33,194 bases of DNA. It comes from Candidatus Falkowbacteria bacterium. Its GTDB lineage: Bacteria > Patescibacteriota > Patescibacteriia > CAIXNZ01. A program made the position numbers and the translations under genes. Below the pieces are notes generated by a model. The model had not been told where the DNA came from. It saw nothing but the letters and a program-made list of their open reading frames with translations, and searched no databases. Location: contig CAVZGV010000004.1 in assembly GCA_963774955.1 (NCBI GenBank), positions 261,522-294,715 of the forward strand, written 5' to 3'. Positions 3,401-23,749 of this stretch are shown here, in pieces. Positions within the stretch are counted from its first letter, which is position 1. The number at the start of each line of letters is the position of its first letter.

Positions 3401-6022
3401 TTAGCCATTTTCACTCTTGTCTTTATTAATTTTATTTTTATAAATGAACGTAGTCGTAAGTCCAAGTCCGAGTACAACTGCAGTGGCCAGGAGATAATTA
3501 AGGACAAAAGTGGTTTGCTTTTGTGCTGGTAACAAAGCTGCTTCCTGTTCTTTGGTTGTTAGATTTTTTATTAGATCTTCTGTAAAGCGAGGCATGACTT
3601 GGAAAACATTATTGTACTTGCGCAGGATACCGGTGATTGTTAAGTTGTCGCCTTCGCTAAAATTGCCTTTGCTTATCTTGGTGTTTGTGTTTATATAGAC
3701 TTCAGCTTCGCCGGTTTCATCCTGAAGATAAAATTTGCTGCTATTTTTTTCAATTAAAGTTCCTTGGATTTGAATTAAATAATCGATAATCGCATCATTA
3801 ATTTCGTTAATTTTGATCGCTTGCGGCTCCGGCTCGGGTTCTTTATTTAAGACCACAATATTTTGGGCCGAGCTTAACTTTAATCTTTTATTCCCCTGGA
3901 TTTCACCGACAGTCCCATTAACTTCTACCAGATCTCCTATTTCCAGATCAGGCCAGTCGGCTTTGGACATATATAGTTGCGTGCCTGACCCGGCCAGATA
4001 CATTATAGTTTTTCCGAAAATATTAGGTAGGGCTGAAACCACTCCTTGCGTAATGACCGTGGTGCCAATATTTAAATTTTTTATTTCCTTTAAGTCTACT
4101 TTAGTTACAGACTCTTCAGATAGGGGTTTTTTATCGGCGGCTGTTTGCTCAATCGTCTCTGCTTTTGTTGTGGCCGCAGCTTTTGCCTTGGTCACGGTTG
4201 TTGTTTTGACTGCAGGAATAGCCGCTTCTTTATTCTCTGTAATTTTAATTTTTATTGTTTGTTGTGCGGACAGATATTTATCGCTGACAGTTAGGTTAAT
4301 GGTAAATGTCCCGGTTTGGTTAAATTGCAATTGGATAATGGGATTGGTAAAAATAGTATCATTGGCTTCCCAGGTAAACTGGAGTTTGTCGTTTTCCGGG
4401 TCATAACTGTCCGAAGCATCGCAGACAATTAATTCTCCTTTGAGTGCCTGTTTGGGGCAATAAATTGCAATTAATGGCGCATGGTTTAGTTTGTTTATAA
4501 TGTTTTCTTTTCCCGGAGTCGGGGTCGTTGACCAAAACCAGCTATTTTCAGAAGCCAGACTGTAGCTGACATTTTCTGGGATTGACGGGTCTTCACCGAA
4601 TTTTAAAGTCTGAATTGTTTTGTTAGTATTACTAATCAGCTTAACCGTGTCTTTTATATTATTTAAAGCAATGCCGCTCTGTTGCCGTCTGATCAGTAAA
4701 TATTCCCCGGGTTTAATTATTGTTGTCCCTAAACTTTCTTTGGAAATTTTATAGGTTATTTTACTAGTGGAACTAAGTTGCCAGCCTGCCAGATCAAATG
4801 GCATTGCACCGGTATTTTTTAGCTCTATCCATTCACCTTCGGCATCATTGCCGAGAGGGTTGGGCATAATCTCATTAAAGATAATTTGTTTTGGCTGGGT
4901 TTCCGGAATCTGGTATTGATTTAAGTTGTCATCTGACGAGGAGATTGGTGTGGCTGGAGAAGGCAGGGGGGTGTAGATGTTTTGTGCGCCTTTAGTTGGG
5001 GTTTGAGTGACGACAAAGTTTGTATCGCCGTCTATTTGTCTGGCAGTAGAATTTGGATCACTTGCCAATGGCGCTTTTACGGTTCCGGTCGGCGCTGTCC
5101 AGTTACCGTAATAAACAGTAGCAAAAACTTCTTCATTGTCATTTTGGAGAATAATGACGTCGCCGCTATTGTTTAAGGCTCCTTTGGGTTTTTCTATAAC
5201 ATAGTAGGGATTTATACTATTGGCTTCGATCTCTCCTTCCAAGGTTGTCGCCGTGTTTGAGCCATCTATGATTTTCCAGCCGGTTAAATCTAACCTAAAA
5301 TCATTTTGATTATATAGCTCAATCCATTCCACCTCGCCATCGCTTGGATCGCTGACAAATTCATTGATAACAATGGTGCCGGGACTTGGCTGAGAAGGAA
5401 TATCCGGTTCAGTATCTCCAGTCGGTGTATCAGGGTCATCGGGCTCATCTGCTGGCGGATCTTCACCCTGATTATCAGGATTCTGGCTGGCTATTTCATT
5501 GGCTCGGCCGGCGCTGTTGGCAGTCGCATGAACCAGCCAATTTGTTTCACTGTAATCGTTTACGGTCAGGTCTATTCTTTGCAGAGAAGAATTGGGGCAG
5601 GGCAGATATGTAAAGCTTTCAATAATTTCCAAATTTTTATTTTTTAAAGCAATTTCTTCGCCGTCTTCATTTAGTGTTGTCCAGGAGCTATCTAAAATGG
5701 TGCCAGTAAAGTCAGGGTAATCAGTTTTGAAGTTGGCAGCCACATCAGCGATTATGGCAAATTCACCCGGATCAATTATAAAGTCATTCTGAAAAGCTGT
5801 TAAACCATGATTGGTTGAGTCTTCAGTAAATTTCCAGCCGCTTAAATCTACAGGGTCGCTGCCTGTATTATAAATTTCCAGCCATTCGTGGTCGCCGGGC
5901 TCATAAGCGCCGATTTCAGAAATGACAATGTCGATATCAGCCGCGGAAACTTTAAGTGGAGAAATAAAAAATCCCAACGCAATTAATGTCAGGATTGTCA
6001 GGATTTGTTTTATTTTTTTCAT
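3401..6022 (-). CDS. surface protein: signal peptide, 3 lamin-tail domains, PKD domain, 2 OB-fold-like domains, C-terminal TM anchor
   Basis: Three ISE/INE/FNE...EW(L/I)E(I/L)(Y/K)N...DL(S/T/A)GW repeats; PKD motif DASDSYDPENDKLQFTW...GTFTINLTVSD; OB-like GDLVEVNG and FYLQDETG...GDNLTITG; C-terminal hydrophobic helix. Confidence 0.88.
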   Translation of the reverse strand: MKKIKQILTILTLIALGFFISPLKVSAADIDIVISEIGAYEPGDHEWLEIYNTGSDPVDLSGWKFTEDSTNHGLTAFQNDFIIDPGEFAIIADVAANFKTDYPDFTGTILDSSWTTLNEDGEEIALKNKNLEIIESFTYLPCPNSSLQRIDLTVNDYSETNWLVHATANSAGRANEIASQNPDNQGEDPPADEPDDPDTPTGDTEPDIPSQPSPGTIVINEFVSDPSDGEVEWIELYNQNDFRLDLTGWKIIDGSNTATTLEGEIEANSINPYYVIEKPKGALNNSGDVIILQNDNEEVFATVYYGNWTAPTGTVKAPLASDPNSTARQIDGDTNFVVTQTPTKGAQNIYTPLPSPATPISSSDDNLNQYQIPETQPKQIIFNEIMPNPLGNDAEGEWIELKNTGAMPFDLAGWQLSSTSKITYKISKESLGTTIIKPGEYLLIRRQQSGIALNNIKDTVKLISNTNKTIQTLKFGEDPSIPENVSYSLASENSWFWSTTPTPGKENIINKLNHAPLIAIYCPKQALKGELIVCDASDSYDPENDKLQFTWEANDTIFTNPIIQLQFNQTGTFTINLTVSDKYLSAQQTIKIKITENKEAAIPAVKTTTVTKAKAAATTKAETIEQTAADKKPLSEESVTKVDLKEIKNLNIGTTVITQGVVSALPNIFGKTIMYLAGSGTQLYMSKADWPDLEIGDLVEVNGTVGEIQGNKRLKLSSAQNIVVLNKEPEPEPQAIKINEINDAIIDYLIQIQGTLIEKNSSKFYLQDETGEAEVYINTNTKISKGNFSEGDNLTITGILRKYNNVFQVMPRFTEDLIKNLTTKEQEAALLPAQKQTTFVLNYLLATAVVLGLGLTTTFIYKNKINKDKSENG

Positions 6023-6390: not shown

Positions 6391-6963
6391 ATGAAAATTG
6401 AAATCAGGGGTTTTCGGGAATTCATGCAGGCTGAGCTTTTTGAAATCGTGGAAAAAAGGCGAGGCCAATTACGTCCGGTGGAAGACATTGGCCAGGAGGA
6501 GCTGGCCTATCTGGTCGGTATGCTGGCACGATTCATTGATACTGCTCATTTTTTACAGCACTACACCAATAGCCCCATCTATGATTTGACTTTGTGTCAA
6601 AACAAGGGCGCTTCCAAAACAGCGCTGACCGGCCTGGGTGATTTCTGTCTGTTTCGCACCGGCTTTTTCCCCCTGGGGTTTAAGTCAAAGCGTACCCCGC
6701 CCAGGAAAAACTTTATTCTGGCGGGGCAGAAAGCCTATTGGCTGGTAGCAGAAAGTCACAATCAGACCCTGGAAATGTTTCGGTCTCTGGCTCTGAATTT
6801 CCTGATTTTTTCCAACTTGCTGAGTGAAATCAGACTGCGCTATTTGTCTGATCAGGAACTGATGGAGCTGTATGATTTATGGCTGGAGACCGGTAGTGAG
6901 TTTGCTGAGGAAGCGATCAGGAAACAAGGAGTGACTCCGCTGCGGGTGGATCACTTAAGTTAA
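6391..6963 (+). CDS. conserved hypothetical alpha-helical protein directly upstream of the TIGR-like array
   Basis: ATG 6391 follows GGAGG. Motifs YLVGMLARF, LGDFCLFRTGFFP, GQKAY and LYDLWLETGS resemble an uncharacterised proteobacterial family (recalled, not searched). No Nop, RuvC or HNH motif is visible. Confidence 0.8.
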   Translation: MKIEIRGFREFMQAELFEIVEKRRGQLRPVEDIGQEELAYLVGMLARFIDTAHFLQHYTNSPIYDLTLCQNKGASKTALTGLGDFCLFRTGFFPLGFKSKRTPPRKNFILAGQKAYWLVAESHNQTLEMFRSLALNFLIFSNLLSEIRLRYLSDQELMELYDLWLETGSEFAEEAIRKQGVTPLRVDHLS

Positions 6964-7015
6964 GGCAGACGTAACATGCAGTGTTTCTTTGAAACTAACC
7001 GTTGATTGTCTGCCG

Positions 7016-7043
7016 AAGCCCCCCCGCTTCGCGGGGGGGCTTT
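7016..7043 (+). terminator. strong GC hairpin after array unit 1
   Basis: AAGCCCCCCCGC-ttc-GCGGGGGGGCTTT. Confidence 0.7.
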
Positions 7044-7267
7044 AAAAAATTCAGTCTAAAGCGGACGATTTACCGATTGTTCCCCTGGGAACGACTGATC
7101 TGATGTCCGCTGATTTTGGCAAGACGATTGTCGAGGTGTTTTTTTAAAAACAAGTCCATCCATGTCTTGCCTTAGTTTAGCCAGGCGAAACCACCAATGT
7201 TTCTGGAAAACGTAGGTTGCATTGCCTGGCCAAACACCAAAGAGCCCCCCTCGGCTTTTTTCTTGGC

Positions 7268-7296
7268 TTGACATTAGGAAGTTGGTTTGTTACTAT
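7268..7296 (+). promoter_or_regulatory. sigma70-type promoter for array units 5-7
   Basis: TTGACA (7268-7273), 17 bp, TACTAT (7291-7296); no credible ORF before the terminator at 7526. Confidence 0.75.
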
Positions 7297-7525
7297 AGGC
7301 AGATATCTTAAAAAATAATAAAATGTTTAATATTTTATAGATGTTAACTGTAATAAGCGGACGAATAAGCATCTGTTGATTCATAACGAATACGCAGGTG
7401 TCCGCTGATTTTGGCAAGACGAACAGATCGGTGTTAAAAACGAACACGATTTTGTCTTGCCAGCAGATTTAGTCAGGCGATCCCGGCTCTGTTTTGAAAA
7501 CAATATCCTCGGTGCCTGGCTAACC

Positions 7526-7553
7526 AAAAAGAGTCCCAATCGGGGCTCTTTTT
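7526..7553 (+). terminator. intrinsic terminator closing the array
   Basis: AAAAAGAGTCCC-aatc-GGGGCTCTTTTT; a weaker homolog at 7239-7262 closes units 2-4. Confidence 0.75.
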
Positions 7554-7724
7554 ATTATGTGAAAAACCGCCCGCGTGAGCGGGCGTGTGCGTTTGGAGCG
7601 AAGCTTTTGGGACAGCATAATACGTTAAATATAATAAAAGGTTTAAGATAGAAAATAACTTTTAAACCAAAATTCAATAAATTCCGCCTTCGGCGACTTA
7701 CTTTTTTATAACTGAAAAAGTAAG

Positions 7725-7753
7725 CCCGCCTTCGCATAAGCTACGGCGGGTAA
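7725..7753. repeat. 29-bp palindromic repeat, intergenic copy of the element found inside rpsA
   Basis: CCCGCCTTCGCATAAGCTACGGCGGGTAA; 26/29 identical to the reverse complement of 12926-12954. Confidence 0.8.
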
Positions 7754-7761
7754 ACGAGCCT

Positions 7762-7791
7762 GCCCTGAGCGAGCGTAGCGAGTCGAAGGGC
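7762..7791. repeat. REP-like element CCCTGAG...GTCGAAGGG
   Basis: GCCCTGAGCGAGCGTAGCGAGTCGAAGGGC; same ends as 6075-6094. Confidence 0.6.
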
Positions 7792-8002
7792 TTATTCGGC
7801 CCCCCAAACCCCCTGGGAGGGGTGAAAATCGGTAAGTGCGATAATATTAATCAAAACGTTTAGCTTCGAGATGCGGGGGCTAGATAAATACCACCGGCTA
7901 TTTTACCGGCGGTAGCTTATTTTCCTTGACTAGTTGCATTTTGTCCTGCTAAGATAGCCACACATGCAATTTTAGCCACATAGAACCAAACAAGGAGGAA
8001 AG

Positions 8003-8299
8003 ATGACAAAATTGCAGAGAACATTTAAGTTTCTGGTGCTGTTTGAAAAACACAGCGATTTCAGCAAATGGCCACGGGCTATTTTGCTGAGGATGGTTTT
8101 TCTTAATCGCGCCTATATCCGCGAATTCTGCTGCTATTGCGACAAGACTTTAAGATTCAAAAAATCTGAAGCAGTCGTCGGCGATAGCGGTGAAATTTGT
8201 CCGACCTGCCTGCGTCAGGAATGCCGCGAGCTTTATGAGCAAATGAAAGCAGAGGGCAAATTTACTGAGCTGCAGATTTGTGAAGCGGAAAAAAATTAG
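8003..8299 (+). CDS. hypothetical protein with a putative Zn finger
   Basis: CCYC...CPTC; SD AAGGAGG; promoter TTGACT (7926)-TAAGAT (7950); terminator at about 8297-8330. Confidence 0.7.
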   Translation: MTKLQRTFKFLVLFEKHSDFSKWPRAILLRMVFLNRAYIREFCCYCDKTLRFKKSEAVVGDSGEICPTCLRQECRELYEQMKAEGKFTELQICEAEKN

Positions 8300-10669: not shown

Positions 10670-12031
10670 TTACAATTCAACTTCCTGTTCATAGGCGGGA
10701 ACTTCGGCTGAAAATCCCAGTTTTATATTAACCAGATTTTTCAAGGCGTCAGCTGCGGCGCGTTCACCCTGAACAATAAAAATATTTTTAGGCGCTTTTT
10801 TGAGATTGCCGATAAATTTTATCAGTTGTCTTTGATCAGCATGTGCAGAGTAAGCGCCAATGGCTTTAATTTCAGCCTTGTTTTTTATAGGCTGTCCTAG
10901 AATTTCTACCACAGGAGTGCCGTCTAAAATTTTTCTACCTAAAGTACCTTCCACCTGAAAACCGATCACCAGAAAACAATTATTGGGATTGTCCAGATAA
11001 TTTTTTTCATGATATAAAATACGTCCGCCCGTGGACATGCCAGACCCGGCAATAATTATTTTAGGGGCAGGGACTTTATCAATACCTTTTGATTCATCAC
11101 GGTTCATAGTGAATTTTAAACCTGGGAAGCTGAAAATATCATCTCCGCTGGCGATAAGATGACGAGTTTTTTCATTAAAATAATTCTGATGTTTTTTGTA
11201 AACCGCGGTTATTTTTATGGCCAAGGGGCTGTCAATAAAAATTGAAACCGGAGGTATTAACTTGTTTTCTACAAAATCATTAAGCTCATAAAGGAGTTCC
11301 TGGGTGCGTTCAATGGCAAATGAGGGCATTAATAAAACCCCTTTACGGTTGATTACCTTAAGAATAGCCTGTCTTAATAACTCTTTTCTTTGTTTTTTTG
11401 GCTCATGGTTGCGGTCGCCGTAAGCAGACTCGATAATTAAATAATCGGCGGTTGTAATGATTGCCGGAGGTTTTAAAAGCGGAGTCGGCGGATTGCCCAG
11501 ATCACCGGTAAACACCAGCTTGCGTTTATTGCTATTCTCCGTAAGCCAAATTTCATAAATTGTTGAACCAAGAATATGCCCGGCTTCATTTAGCCGAATC
11601 GTAATATTATCATTTAATTTAATCTCCTGGCCATAAGTATAGGTTTTAATCAATTTTAGCATTTGCTGTAAATCAGCTTCGTCATACATAGGCGCCAGGC
11701 CTTTTTCCCTGGCTTCTTCCTGCATCAGATGAACAGCATCTTCCAGCGCTACAGCCATAAGGTCACGGGTGGGAAGCGTACAAATGATTTGGCCACGAAA
11801 GCCATCTTTGACGAGCTTGGCCAATCGGCCGCAGTGATCCAAATGAGAATGAGTAATTAAAACAAAATTAATTTCTGCAGGATTATAAGGGAACGACTGG
11901 TAATTTAATTCCTGAAGTTCAGGCGCACCCTGAAACAGGCCGCAATCAACCATAAGTTTTGTTTGGCCGACATCTATAATATAATTAGAGCCGGTGACGA
12001 CTTTGGCGCCGCCGAAAAAATGTAGTTTCAT
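10670..12031 (-). CDS. MBL-fold beta-CASP ribonuclease (YSH1/CPSF73-like)
   Basis: Start MKLHFFGGAKVVTGS; motifs THSHLDHCG, AGHILGS, FTGDLG, ESAYGDR and YSAHAD. Confidence 0.93.
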   Translation of the reverse strand: MKLHFFGGAKVVTGSNYIIDVGQTKLMVDCGLFQGAPELQELNYQSFPYNPAEINFVLITHSHLDHCGRLAKLVKDGFRGQIICTLPTRDLMAVALEDAVHLMQEEAREKGLAPMYDEADLQQMLKLIKTYTYGQEIKLNDNITIRLNEAGHILGSTIYEIWLTENSNKRKLVFTGDLGNPPTPLLKPPAIITTADYLIIESAYGDRNHEPKKQRKELLRQAILKVINRKGVLLMPSFAIERTQELLYELNDFVENKLIPPVSIFIDSPLAIKITAVYKKHQNYFNEKTRHLIASGDDIFSFPGLKFTMNRDESKGIDKVPAPKIIIAGSGMSTGGRILYHEKNYLDNPNNCFLVIGFQVEGTLGRKILDGTPVVEILGQPIKNKAEIKAIGAYSAHADQRQLIKFIGNLKKAPKNIFIVQGERAAADALKNLVNIKLGFSAEVPAYEQEVEL

Positions 12032-12162
12032 ATTGATAAGGGGTAAGAAGGGATTGTAAGAGTTAAGAGGGGGTAATAAGGGAAGTCCCTTCTTACATCT
12101 TTTACCCACCTTCCTCTTCTTTAACTTATTTAAATTATATCACGTTACTCACATTATAAATA

Positions 12163-15467: not shown

Positions 15468-15866
15468 ATGGGTAAAATCGTGAAATTTGCAGGAAAAGCT
15501 TTGGCTAGTGACATTAAGCAATTGCAAAATGACTTATCGAAGTTGAATAGAAGTAAAGATAATAAGCTGAAATGGAAATTTGTACTAGATGATTTTCATC
15601 TTTGCAGCTGGAATACTACCGATGTCACTACCTATCAGGAAGGAACATTGATCGAAGCCTTTAAAAAAGCTAAACGAGTTTTTGGTGAAAATAATGGCAC
15701 AGATTACCTTGATATCAGCGGAAGTGGGATCCAGATCGCACTAGTTTGCTTTTCGGGATATGAGGTTTGGCTTCCTAAGCAGCTTTGGGAAAAAACAATC
15801 CATGAATTTTTACGCGATTCAGAATCACGACATTGGTGTGACGATAAAAAATGTCGAATTGTCTGA
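15468..15866 (+). CDS. hypothetical protein
   Basis: SD AAGGAGG; first gene of a three-gene operon. Confidence 0.75.
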   Translation: MGKIVKFAGKALASDIKQLQNDLSKLNRSKDNKLKWKFVLDDFHLCSWNTTDVTTYQEGTLIEAFKKAKRVFGENNGTDYLDISGSGIQIALVCFSGYEVWLPKQLWEKTIHEFLRDSESRHWCDDKKCRIV

Positions 15867-15889
15867 ATCTTGTAGAAAGGAGGAAAGTC

Positions 15890-16945
15890 ATGAAACCGAT
15901 TTACGTTTACGCGGGAAGCTTTTGTCCGCCGACTTATGGGCATCTGAACATTCTGCAAAAAGCCGCAGAGCTTTTTCCCGAAGTGGTTGTTGTCTGTTCA
16001 GTCAATCCCAACAAGAACGGCAACTGGTTTACACCTGAGGAATGCGCTCAGCTTTGGCAAAGTTATGATCTGCCGGCCAATGCGCGCATCACGACTTTAA
16101 GCGACATGAGCAAAAAGCAGACAAGCTTTGACAATATCGTGCTCATTCGCGGACTGCGTGGCCGGGCTGACTTGCAGGAAAACATTGGTGTGGTTGAACT
16201 GAATCATAATCAGTTTGGCATCAACAAGTTTTTTTATCAGTACGGCGATTCGGAATTTGCTGAGGTTTCTTCAAGCAAAGTGCGGGCAGCAGCCAGTAAA
16301 TTGCAGCTTGAGGAATTGGGGCGCATGGTTTCGCCCTTGGTAATCAGTTCTTTGCTGGAAAAAGTGCTTAAACTGAAAAATCTGTTTCTGGTTGTGGGTC
16401 GGCCGGGTGGGGGCAAATCAACATTTTTAAAAGTGTTGCAGCAGCAAAATCAGCTTAACGTCCACATCAACACCGATGATTTTCTGGCTGAGTTCAAATC
16501 GATACTGAAGGAACATTTCCAGACTGATGATCTGATAAGCCTGGCTTTGGAAAGGGATGAGGAAGTCAAACAAGTCCTGAAAAAACCCTATCTGGAAAAG
16601 TTACGGCAAGAGTTTACAAAAATGCCCGAGGGCAGCAATGTCTTTGTGGAGATTGCTTACGGCTTACAGCCGAATAAACACTCCTACCGTTATGTCGGCG
16701 GTAAAGTGCTTTATATCGGCTGCGACGATGAAGATCAAAACAGTAAACGTGTAAATCAGCGTGGCAATCCGGAACATCAGCCGTTTATTAAACTGATTCC
16801 AGACTGGGAACAGAGCCAAAGAGTGGCTGAACAAAACAGATTGAGTCTTTGGCAAATAAATACTAATTGTTCATTAGAGCAATTAGTAGACACTGCTTCA
16901 AGATTCAATCAAGTCTTGGAACAAGGAGGCTCTTGGCATGGATAA
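15890..16945 (+). CDS. CoaD-like nucleotidyltransferase fused to a P-loop (dephospho-CoA kinase-like) domain
   Basis: YAGSFCPPTYGHLNI, NPNK, LIRGLR and VSSSKVR (phosphopantetheine adenylyltransferase motifs), then GRPGGGKST...INTDD; ATG 15890 follows AGGAGG. Confidence 0.82.
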   Translation: MKPIYVYAGSFCPPTYGHLNILQKAAELFPEVVVVCSVNPNKNGNWFTPEECAQLWQSYDLPANARITTLSDMSKKQTSFDNIVLIRGLRGRADLQENIGVVELNHNQFGINKFFYQYGDSEFAEVSSSKVRAAASKLQLEELGRMVSPLVISSLLEKVLKLKNLFLVVGRPGGGKSTFLKVLQQQNQLNVHINTDDFLAEFKSILKEHFQTDDLISLALERDEEVKQVLKKPYLEKLRQEFTKMPEGSNVFVEIAYGLQPNKHSYRYVGGKVLYIGCDDEDQNSKRVNQRGNPEHQPFIKLIPDWEQSQRVAEQNRLSLWQINTNCSLEQLVDTASRFNQVLEQGGSWHG

Positions 16946-22020: not shown

Positions 22021-22110
22021 ATAAATTTCAACTACAAAAGAGTTCCGAACGCGGGGCTCTTTTTTCTTTGGATAAAATAAATACCGCCTTTTTAGGGGCG
22101 GTATATTGGG

Positions 22111-23178
22111 TTATTTGGGGTGTACTATGGTCGTACACAGATATTCGCTGTGGACCTTGTTGGTGTGAACGACTTCGATGTCGGACGCATCCACTTCGAT
22201 ATCAACTTTATTATAGAAGGGGCAGAAATCATCGGGGAGGTTTAAGCCTCCTGAATGTAGGACTGCCCTGGAAGCGCAGCCGCCACGACAATTGGCGAAG
22301 TAATGACAGTCGTGGCAAAAGGGAACATCCCTGGCGCGCAATCTTTGAAATGGTTCACTGTTGTAGATTTCCACCAAGGATTGTTCCTGCAAAGAACCAG
22401 CTGACCAGTCAGCTCCGCCCAGGAAAGTGCAGGGCGAAATCTGGCCATTGGACTGAATGCGGCAGGATGCCCGGCCGCAATTGCAGCCGGGATGCTCGGA
22501 TTTTTCGCCGAACATGCCTTCCAAAACCGGTTCGGACAGATCTTCGAAAATCACGTTCTTAGACAGCAGTTTGATGATCTGCCAAAACCTTTGGGTGGTG
22601 ATGCGCAAATCAGCTTTGCCTCGGCCTTTTTCCCGAAACCAGGAACAGCGCCAGGACGTGCCGTATTTAGAGGCCAATTCTAGAAAGTCCAGAATGTCTT
22701 CGTCCTTGGTTTTGCTGGTAATGCAGGTAACGATTGAGGTTTCAATGCCAGCCTCCTTGCAAATTTGTAAAGACTGCATGGACCATTGCCAGGCTTTGGG
22801 ATGGCGTCTCATCTCGTTGTGTTTTTCCGGGTTGGCAAAATCAATGGAGATGTCAATGTCATGGAAAATTTGCCTGAGTTTGTCCGGACCCAGCAGCATG
22901 ATGGTCGTACCATTACTGGTAACCGCCTGTTCAACCTGAGGATAGGTGTCGGTAATATATTCGGCCAGGTTGGTCACGTGGGGATTAAAGATAAACTCGC
23001 CGGTGCCATAGTTGATGGAGTGGATCTGGGGACAGAGTTTATCTGCCACGAATTGCAGTTCTTCATAACTGTATTCGCGGGCGCGTTTGCAGGCTGCGGA
23101 ATAGCAGGTTTTGCATTTCATGTTGCAGACCCCGAAGCCCCAGCCAATGTTTTTCAGTTGCATGACTTCATTGTTCAT
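22111..23178 (-). CDS. radical SAM/SPASM domain protein
   Basis: CNMKCKTCY; SPASM cysteines CNCG...PC...CHDC...CRGGC...DDFCP; start 23178 follows GGAGG. Confidence 0.92.
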   Translation of the reverse strand: MNNEVMQLKNIGWGFGVCNMKCKTCYSAACKRAREYSYEELQFVADKLCPQIHSINYGTGEFIFNPHVTNLAEYITDTYPQVEQAVTSNGTTIMLLGPDKLRQIFHDIDISIDFANPEKHNEMRRHPKAWQWSMQSLQICKEAGIETSIVTCITSKTKDEDILDFLELASKYGTSWRCSWFREKGRGKADLRITTQRFWQIIKLLSKNVIFEDLSEPVLEGMFGEKSEHPGCNCGRASCRIQSNGQISPCTFLGGADWSAGSLQEQSLVEIYNSEPFQRLRARDVPFCHDCHYFANCRGGCASRAVLHSGGLNLPDDFCPFYNKVDIEVDASDIEVVHTNKVHSEYLCTTIVHPK

Positions 23179-23749
23179 GGGCAGGACCTCCGATCTGTTG
23201 CAGGACTTTGTTTCTGGCCGCATCCAGGTTCAGTTTGGTGGTGTCAATGATGATCGGATTAGGCAAGGATTGGGTGAAGATCTCCCTTTCTTTATCAATC
23301 AGTTCCGGCCTGAGCAAGTAGAGATTGTGAAAGGGATTGATCGCCACTTCATTCATCCGTCTGACTGATTCTTTAGTGCTGACGTCAATCTGGAAGGCCA
23401 GATCTGGTTTGGCCAAAAGCGGCCAAAAGATCTTGCCCAAAAGACGGTTGTACCAACGTGAGGCAGTATGAAAGACCATGACTGAAAAAAAGTAACGGTC
23501 GTGTAGGACTGTTTGTCCCTTTTTCAGCGCCGGTCTGACCACTGTCAGATTGCTGATCAGCAATTCCACGAGCAGGGTCAGGGTTGAAGGATGCTTACGG
23601 GCAAAACAGCCCCAGCCAGTGGTTACATCTCCCAGCCCTTTGACATAAAGCCAGTCAGGTCGGGATGCTAATACTGCTTTGATCAGGGAAGTTTTGCCGG
23701 CCGCATTGATGCCTTCAAAGATAATCAGTTTGCCTTTGGTTGCGTTCAT
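23168..23749 (-). CDS. thymidylate kinase-like NMP kinase
   Basis: IIFEGINAAGKTS, LHDRYFFS and KPDL; ATGA overlap with the upstream gene. Confidence 0.85.
   Translation of the reverse strand: MNATKGKLIIFEGINAAGKTSLIKAVLASRPDWLYVKGLGDVTTGWGCFARKHPSTLTLLVELLISNLTVVRPALKKGQTVLHDRYFFSVMVFHTASRWYNRLLGKIFWPLLAKPDLAFQIDVSTKESVRRMNEVAINPFHNLYLLRPELIDKEREIFTQSLPNPIIIDTTKLNLDAARNKVLQQIGGPAHEQ

Follow-up and report, generated by a model that had tools for sequence, protein, structure and literature searches.

A 33,194-nt window of a Candidatus Falkowbacteria genome (assembly GCA_963774955.1; 1.50 Mb in seven contigs, 95% complete, referred to as G000), corresponding to positions 261522-294715 of contig C4 (CAVZGV010000004.1), was analysed around a cluster of seven plus-strand stem-loop units located within window positions 6964-7523. 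The sequence evidence supported the identification of these units as stem-loop tandem interspaced guide RNA (TIGR) units of the published kind, rather than as a new system. We consider it very probable that they are functional tigRNA genes, forming satellite stem-loop arrays that would serve the single TasR protein encoded about 231 kb away. The initial annotation, which had read the cluster as a TIGR-like guide array, was right in kind: the units agree with the published definition, a TasR is encoded in the genome, and the units flanking its gene share one covariance model with those of the window.

Units of stem-loop TIGR arrays hold two spacers each, of 8-12 nt and mostly of 9 nt. The passages of Faure et al. 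2025 (PMC12045711) that deal with such arrays describe them as processed to single hairpin units, which are bound by Tas proteins. A total of 2,559 stem-loop arrays have been reported, and a TasR clade from the candidate phyla radiation (CPR) has been described whose RuvC domains are inactive and whose units carry a hairpin in the loop that separates the spacers; most known TIGR loci lie on short metagenomic contigs, and both the natural targets and the way in which spacers are acquired are unknown (Xu et al., 10.64898/2026.09.09.750476).

Grammar and structure of the units

The seven units were found, by sequence reading and by a scripted grammar scan, to follow one common grammar: an outer stem of 6-9 bp, box C, 9 nt, TG (box D), an inner segment of 7-12 nt, a second box C, 9 nt, TG and the complementary stem. 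Box D was TG in 14 of 14 positions, and box C was spelled CGA in nine positions, CGT in two, CAA in two and CTA in one. All 14 spacers were exactly 9 nt long and all were distinct, with pairwise Hamming distances of at least 3. In-register pairing between spacers A and B averaged 3.3 of 9 positions for the cognate combinations versus 3.5 of 9 for the 42 non-cognate ones. The initial annotation had described the shared grammar, the 14 unique spacers and the lack of pairing between A and B correctly, and the grammar scan returned a spacer set identical to the one that it listed. The variant box C (mostly CGA) that it noted is no new variant: CGA is already among the stem-loop motifs of TIGRFinder; the part of the methods of Xu et al. 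(10.64898/2026.09.09.750476) that describes this program names CCA, CGA, CTA and CAA, with TG/CG. Twelve of the 14 boxes of the window fall within this published set, and the other two are CGT, a one-base variant.

In the alignment of the seven window units the proposed structure was paired in 98.7% of cells. The outer helix, including the C-G pair between box C and box D, was paired in 100% of cells over seven pairs, five of which changed on both sides, and the inner helix was paired in 96.4% of cells, as expected from the earlier description of inner hairpins that vary in sequence yet keep pairing. The C:G pairs between box C and box D were invariant at both helices in all seven units. When the 3' partners were slid by 1-3 columns as a control, just 32-50% of cells paired. 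Pairing alone is circular evidence because a stem was required in the unit search, but covariation between stem classes is not.

A loose grammar (C-N-N boxes, stem of at least 5), scanned over both strands of the genome, gave 95 matches, with 34 in four TIGR sites (the window cluster and the three sites described below) and 61 scattered elsewhere. About 0.01 loose matches are expected by chance in a stretch of 560 nt, in comparison with the seven that were observed, so that a chance origin of the seven-unit cluster is excluded. A repeat search at the locus returned short imperfect direct repeats alone, reflecting the unit scaffold. No Rfam family reached its gathering score in the whole window, and at E <= 1 the region 6900-8100 gave two chance-level matches alone (Atu_C8 and sar); a search of the window for tRNA and tmRNA genes was negative.

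The units are arranged as 1 + 3 + 3 in tandem within 560 nt, with linkers of 4-11 nt inside the triplets. The order of the blocks is a solo unit (U1), a hairpin, a triplet (U2-U4), a hairpin, a promoter-like site, a second triplet (U5-U7) and a final hairpin. Of the single seven-unit array proposed initially, the tandem units therefore stand, and the one array is replaced by a solo unit and two triplets that are split by hairpins and a promoter-like site.

An RNA family shared with the arrays around tasR

The genome-wide scan detected the same grammar (CGA/TG boxes, 9-nt spacers) at three further sites. These were a main cluster of 21 strict units that contains the tasR-like gene (C4:33130-38155, minus strand), a second cluster of five strict units located 13 kb from tasR (C4:22541-23128, plus strand), and a free-standing solo unit on a contig other than that of tasR (C3:456310-456359, minus strand), the last detected also by the covariance model described below and provided with its own promoter-like TTGACA-17-TAATTT and a hairpin with a T-run. 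Some 30-40 like units flank the tasR-like gene. Contig C4 is 455 kb long and carries one tasR, with units at three places: flanking it, 13 kb off and 231 kb off, the window units starting 230,974 bp from the gene.

A covariance model, R1, was built from 24 units of the two tasR-side clusters and from zero window units. The structure was paired in 95.8% of cells of this alignment; its inner helix, which had not been used in unit finding, was paired in 89%, and both sides changed in three of four pairs. Run over the whole window with filters off, R1 recovered all seven units (27.7-40.5 bits, E 7.5e-9 to 2.2e-5): U1 (6964-7014; 31.7 bits, E 1.8e-6), U2 (7060-7111; 31.2 bits, E 2.4e-6), U3 (7118-7171; 40.5 bits, E 7.5e-9), U4 (7180-7230; 29.8 bits, E 5.7e-6), U5 (7356-7406; 40.5 bits, E 7.7e-9), U6 (7411-7463; 36.6 bits, E 8.5e-8) and U7 (7469-7523; 27.7 bits, E 2.2e-5). 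No other match was obtained on the plus strand of the window, and the minus strand gave two weak antisense echoes, of U3 and U6. In the genome-wide search, in which 150 of 790 candidates were scored, R1 gave 48 matches at E <= 0.1, located in the C4 clusters and the solo C3 unit alone; U4 and U7 were absent from this partially scored list. The covariance-model scan that had been proposed as a check was in this way performed with a model from the tasR side only, and its recovery of all seven units places them in one RNA family with the arrays beside tasR.

Within the main array (C4:33130-35862, minus strand) the units tend to recur in the order AGGGGA-stem, TTTTGCGGA-stem and GGGYGAGA-stem, i.e. 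as triplets. Two spacer pairs are exactly duplicated inside this array, which indicates segmental duplication.

The TasR effector and its fold

A profile search found one tasR-like locus in the genome (C4:35961-37511, minus strand; open reading frame [ORF] P0002, 516 aa), inside the main cluster. The sole PDB sequence match of P0002 was 9mty_A (E 0.031), which belongs to the structure of TaTasR (9MTY; Xu et al. preprint, 10.64898/2026.09.09.750476). At E <= 0.001, P0002 had 617 homologues, of which 120 were listed; by hand count, PF02371 and/or PF01548 (IS110-type) were present in 72 of these 120, and the named homologues among the matches listed were from CPR phyla (Parcubacteria, Falkowbacteria, Uhrbacteria, Nealsonbacteria, Buchananbacteria and 'Patescibacteria group').

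An intact homologue, P0003 (492 aa, 91% identical), was folded unchanged with AlphaFold, together with 46 homologues, and yielded a model with a pLDDT of 88.1 and a pTM of 0.81. The best solved structures for this model were the two chains of TIGR-TasR with tigRNA and DNA (9mty_A/B, E 1.4e-10 / 2.1e-10; TM normalised by target 0.63-0.67), followed by IS621 recombinase-bridge RNA complexes (E 2e-8 to 7e-7) and then by TasH-tigRNA complexes; Nop56/58/Nop5 were matched weakly (E 0.06-0.4). An insertion of about 80 residues lies between the strands at 31-37 and 117-121, in agreement with what the Xu et al. preprint describes for CsTasR. The initial annotation had asked for a search for Nop-domain or Tas proteins, and the outcome was divided: a TasR-like protein whose fold best matches 9mty was found, and the genome search with the Pfam Nop model (PF01798), which does not see Tas proteins, was negative up to E <= 10.

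Position 8, at the end of the first strand, was R in 39, Q in five, I/V/L in three and D/E in none of the 47 aligned sequences. CsTasR, which has R8 in place of the first RuvC catalytic residue, is inactive (Xu et al., 10.64898/2026.09.09.750476). The RuvC domain of the present clade is most likely inactive too and, as there is no acidic residue at the presumed first catalytic position, binding or silencing of DNA is more likely than cutting.

Co-occurrence and spacer turnover among relatives

The comparison set comprised 41 genomes, G000 and 40 relatives, which are not independent of each other. TasR was present in six of them (G000, G002, G003, G007, G013 and G016), and all six had R1 matches at E <= 0.001 (42, 63, 1, 4, 10 and 5, respectively).

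In G002, a genome of the same genus, the orthologue (82% identical) of P0001, the ORF that precedes U1, is directly followed by a single triplet, whose stems and linkers agree with those of the window, and by a terminator-like hairpin. Compared with the two window triplets, the scaffold of the G002 triplet was identical at 74/94 and 78/96 positions (79-81%), versus 16/54 for the spacers in each comparison (30%, chance level). The two window triplets are paralogous to each other, U2 with U5 (stem GCGGA), U3 with U6 (stem GGCAAGA) and U4 with U7 (CCAGG, the stem being GCCAGG in U4); their scaffold (stems, boxes and linkers) was identical at 81/92 positions versus 13/54 for the six spacers, again at chance level. 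Overall, identity was 24-30% for spacers versus 79-88% for scaffold. The initial annotation had stated that 9-mers as conserved as the scaffold in orthologous loci would speak against guides; the G002 comparison favours guides.

Between the strict units of G000 (n = 34) and G002 (n = 51), two spacer pairs were common at up to 2/18 mismatches, none of them from the window, and the remaining comparisons of spacer pairs differed at 6-18 positions, with a mode of 13. Units were found on seven contigs of G002 and on three of G013; unit dispersal seems to be a trait of the lineage, and only the long contig of G000 allows the distance to be measured.

The two shared spacer pairs are located at C4:22599-22649 and C4:35440-35494, have their counterparts at G002 loci L002, L019 and L020 (1 and 2/18 mismatches), and may mark long-lived common targets.

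Alternative explanations

Several observations weigh against reading the seven units as functional guide genes of this TasR. Every sequence-level feature of stem-loop TIGR arrays is present, and adjacency to tas is the sole one that the units lack: over a distance of 231 kb, the link to TasR is drawn from family membership and co-occurrence, not from adjacency. The literature searched contained no report of units located tens to hundreds of kb away from tas, with supplements and TIGRSafari, which may list this locus or distal arrays, outside the search. Three of the 35 genomes without TasR had R1 matches (two in G012, two in G028 and one in G039), and TasR was absent from these three by profile search too. 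The inactivity of RuvC is deduced from a motif position and from the published description, not from a residue-level structural alignment. A conserved CUU at the stem base of stem-loop tigRNAs marks the processing site (Xu et al., 10.64898/2026.09.09.750476), and the corresponding CTT at the 3' stem base was seen by eye in one of the seven units (U3); this motif may be clade-specific. The terminator scan missed all three block-end hairpins of the plus strand, as their T-runs lie within or against the stem. Finally, the tasR of G000 changes frame four times relative to P0003: once close to the N-terminus, once on each side of residues 300-345 and once close to the C-terminus.

These frame changes are an argument for regarding the units as orphaned relics, i.e. 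functionless leftovers, transcribed or silent, of an organism whose effector is broken. Through one of the changes the PF02371-like segment, which is conserved, falls out of frame, the middle part of tasR appears in another frame in the profile search, and the long distance between gene and units would suit the same explanation. However, secA, an essential gene (C3:324972-327374, plus strand), likewise lies in three different frames in this assembly, with rpoB intact, and for that reason the changes in tasR are probably consensus indels of the assembly, not signs of a dead gene. Two of the four consist of the loss of one C in a CCGG context, which may be read as a systematic error, and where tasR is in frame it is almost identical to P0003, which is intact. 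All seven units retain their boxes, their paired stems and spacers of exactly 9 nt, and the congener G002 keeps a triplet at the site, though its own tasR-like match contains one TAG. The relic explanation is therefore improbable.

Runs of overlapping same-strand ORFs in differing frames were also observed on the plus strand of the window, at 22068-23250 and 15468-16945, and these may be further frameshifted genes of the assembly.

Self-directed regulation, with an inactive TasR steered to promoters or genes of its own genome and mismatches tolerated, is still less likely. Reprogrammed inactive TasR and TasA do repress transcription (Xu et al., 10.64898/2026.09.09.750476), and the units occupy stable chromosomal positions with promoter-like sites of their own. 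With 33 strict units, the genome was searched for sites in which spacer A stands beside spacer B in reverse complement, and for sites in the opposite arrangement, gaps of 0-2 being allowed. Outside the arrays no site with up to one mismatch was found in either geometry in this 95%-complete genome, and sites with two mismatches (17 and 12 for the two geometries) were no commoner than in same-strand controls (7 and 14), so that self-targeting was rejected. The almost complete difference of the spacers in the congener fits changing foreign targets rather than fixed regulation. Foreign DNA would fit as the target, given that the spacers turn over fast and have no self-matches. Two passages of Faure et al. 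2025 (PMC12045711) differ in their wording of the cut site, which leaves the target orientation ambiguous as far as those passages go, and target searches are described as giving many false positives in the corresponding part of the Xu et al. preprint (10.64898/2026.09.09.750476). In public viral or metagenome collections, given their size, chance alone should produce matches to an 18-nt site.

Structured repeats unrelated to Tas (terminator-like hairpins, elements resembling miniature inverted-repeat transposable elements, or a box C/D- or bridge-RNA-like non-coding RNA), which the intergenic position near other hairpins and a repeated 305-nt element and the lack of an Rfam family could suggest, are hardly tenable against the specific combination of fixed 9+9-nt variable loops, an invariant C..(9)..TG and a model shared with the tasR-flanking arrays, in a genome without a Pfam Nop match and at a locus with neither an adjacent IS110-type recombinase nor conserved RUGAUGA/CUGA boxes.

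Proposed mode of action

For functional guide genes serving the distant TasR, we infer transcription, processing, binding, mode of action and targets as follows. U1, and possibly U2-U4, would be carried as a 3' extension on the transcript of the upstream ORF, and U5-U7 would be transcribed from their own promoter-like site, with a hairpin ending each block. Cleavage by host RNases within the 4-11-nt linkers would yield hairpin RNAs about 50 nt long, and a TasR dimer would bind each of them via its two pairs of box C with box D. In these, the C of CGA would pair with the G of UG, closing the outer stem and the inner hairpin, and the 9-nt spacers would form the open loops. Spacers A and B would pair with opposite strands of an 18-bp DNA site. 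Foreign DNA would then most likely be bound stably and silenced, not cut, as the clade has Arg/Gln, never Asp/Glu, at the presumed first RuvC catalytic position.

Comparison with known systems

The closest known systems are the stem-loop TIGR arrays of the CPR TasR clade, for example that of CsTasR (Candidatus Staskawiczbacteria), which share with the window two 9-nt spacers per unit, boxes C spelled CGA/CAA/CTA, UG as box D, an outer stem that is palindromic and variable, a short hairpin separating the two spacers, and tandem units in sub-arrays separated by intergenic stretches. The proteins are also alike, with about 490-550 aa, a large RuvC insertion and a non-acidic first catalytic position (R8). 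Unlike in these systems, the window units lie about 231 kb from tasR and a further solo unit is on another contig; the blocks have putative start or end signals of their own, the triplets are made of three stem classes, and CUU is not evident.

Dual-repeat TIGR systems (TaTasR, SpTasH; 36-nt tigRNAs) likewise have dual 9-nt spacers bracketed by boxes and a Nop-domain effector dimer, and in both cases the two spacers are expected to pair with different strands of the DNA. In contrast, the window units are of about 50 nt, with long variable stems and without conserved edge/loop repeats, and the effector clade is probably no nuclease and, according to the Xu et al. preprint, is without the Y/H processing loop.

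The bridge RNA of IS110/IS621 resembles the units in that its effector has a related fold and its internal loops carry guide segments. It is a single bispecific RNA with two loops, located beside a DEDD recombinase inside a mobile element, whereas the window has many arrayed units with one loop pair each, no adjacent recombinase and no element ends. No transposase domain was found with Pfam in the neighbouring ORFs of the window.

Archaeal and eukaryotic box C/D s(no)RNAs, whose partners are Nop5/Nop56/58, L7Ae and fibrillarin, are similar in their two box-flanked guides and their Nop-domain dimer. The K-turn boxes of these RNAs are RUGAUGA and CUGA, neither of which was present at conserved columns of the seven-unit alignment, and the expected target of the window units is DNA, not RNA methylation sites. 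CRISPR arrays, in which spacers of some 30 nt lie between identical direct repeats of some 25-40 nt, also combine a tandem conserved scaffold with variable guides and a fast guide turnover between close relatives, whereas the units of the window have two 9-nt guides per hairpin and no long identical direct repeats, and no cas genes are involved.

Organization of the locus and neighbouring genes

U1 begins one base past the stop codon of ORF P0001 (6379-6963, plus strand; 194 aa, or 190 aa from the second Met, which is probably the start), and reads GGCAGA / CGT / AACATGCAG / TG / hairpin / CTA / ACCGTTGAT / TG / TCTGCC. It is followed at 7016-7042 (plus strand) by a G+C-rich hairpin, a perfect inverted repeat of 12 bp (I8, 100% complementary), then by TTT and an A-run; this hairpin is a possible terminator, leaky or bidirectional. 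The first triplet begins sixteen bases past it and ends before a terminator-like hairpin that overlaps a T-run at about 7239-7262 (plus strand), recognized by eye and by a direct repeat (D8) with 7528-7543; it is similar to the hairpin after the second triplet. The promoter-like site at 7268-7296 (plus strand), TTGACA-17-TACTAT with a TG before the -10 element, is only a consensus match, at 10/12 positions; it had the top plus-strand score of the promoter scan and lies about 60 nt upstream of U5. The second triplet ends before a terminator-like 12-bp hairpin that runs into a T-run (7526-7553, plus strand; inverted repeat I17, 92% complementary).

P0001 had no Pfam or PDB sequence match and had 11 homologues; among the genomes compared it occurs in G000, G002, G004, G005, G009 and G011. 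The protein atlas returned 'hypothetical protein' clusters alone, and no similarity was found to the ORF upstream of the array at 22.5 kb. It was rejected as an effector on account of the missing matches and of orthologues in four genomes without TasR or units. No CGA-type unit was found downstream of P0001 in these four TasR-less genomes, and by this comparison P0001 is not linked to tasR. It appears to be a lineage-specific protein, with U1, and perhaps U2-U4, as a candidate 3' extension of its gene.

Directly past the last triplet lies a structured element of about 305 nt (7617-7922, plus strand; fold z-score -4.25), without an Rfam match and with a promoter-like TTGGGA-17-TATAAT beside it at 7607-7635. 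Copies occur in the same genome at C6:70868-71172 (88%) and C3:413215-413559 (76%), together with short fragments; the ORF at 8003-8299, downstream of the element, is not repeated. This element may be a non-coding RNA of a type not known or a small mobile repeat.

Located 3 kb downstream of the arrays, at 10670-12109 (minus strand), is the gene of an RNase of the beta-CASP / metallo-beta-lactamase type, which is RNase J-like and has an RMMBL domain. Its role is probably housekeeping, but it is of a type of host RNase that could process stem-loop tigRNAs. Upstream of the locus, on the minus strand, are the ORF of a bAvd-like four-helix protein (2392-2781), whose score is exactly that of the Pfam cut-off, and the ORF of a protein of 873 aa in which three lamin-tail domains, a PKD domain and DUF5689 were recognized (3401-6022); the domain annotation of the window ORFs showed no link between these two proteins and the arrays.

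Significance for TIGR biology

The finding reveals no new kind of system. Judged by sequence, three features appear to go beyond the literature: the dispersal of putatively separate transcription units far outside the surveyed ±10 kb, the triplet organization with three stem classes, and the complete replacement of spacers at a syntenic site. The flank surveyed around every Tas protein in the published tree was at most 10 kb on each side, according to the methods passage of Xu et al. (10.64898/2026.09.09.750476). As a tentative generalization, which we hold to be possible though somewhat less than even in likelihood, the tigRNA genes of this lineage would be scattered over the chromosome as separate small transcription units, and at a syntenic site both spacers of every unit would have been exchanged, with stems, boxes, linkers and terminator left in position; examples would be the 3' tails of ordinary genes, the promoter-driven triplets and the one-unit gene on another contig.

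The locus indicates that guide counts confined to the surroundings of tas can overlook units and that tigRNA units can be free-standing genes with promoter-like sites and hairpins of their own, and provides a conserved chromosomal site at which spacer turnover can be compared between congeners. If the generalization is true, censuses limited to about ±10 kb around tas would undercount guides, a process of in-place spacer replacement would act on dispersed scaffolds, and the comparison of G000 with G002 would offer a direct handle on how TIGR arrays acquire spacers.

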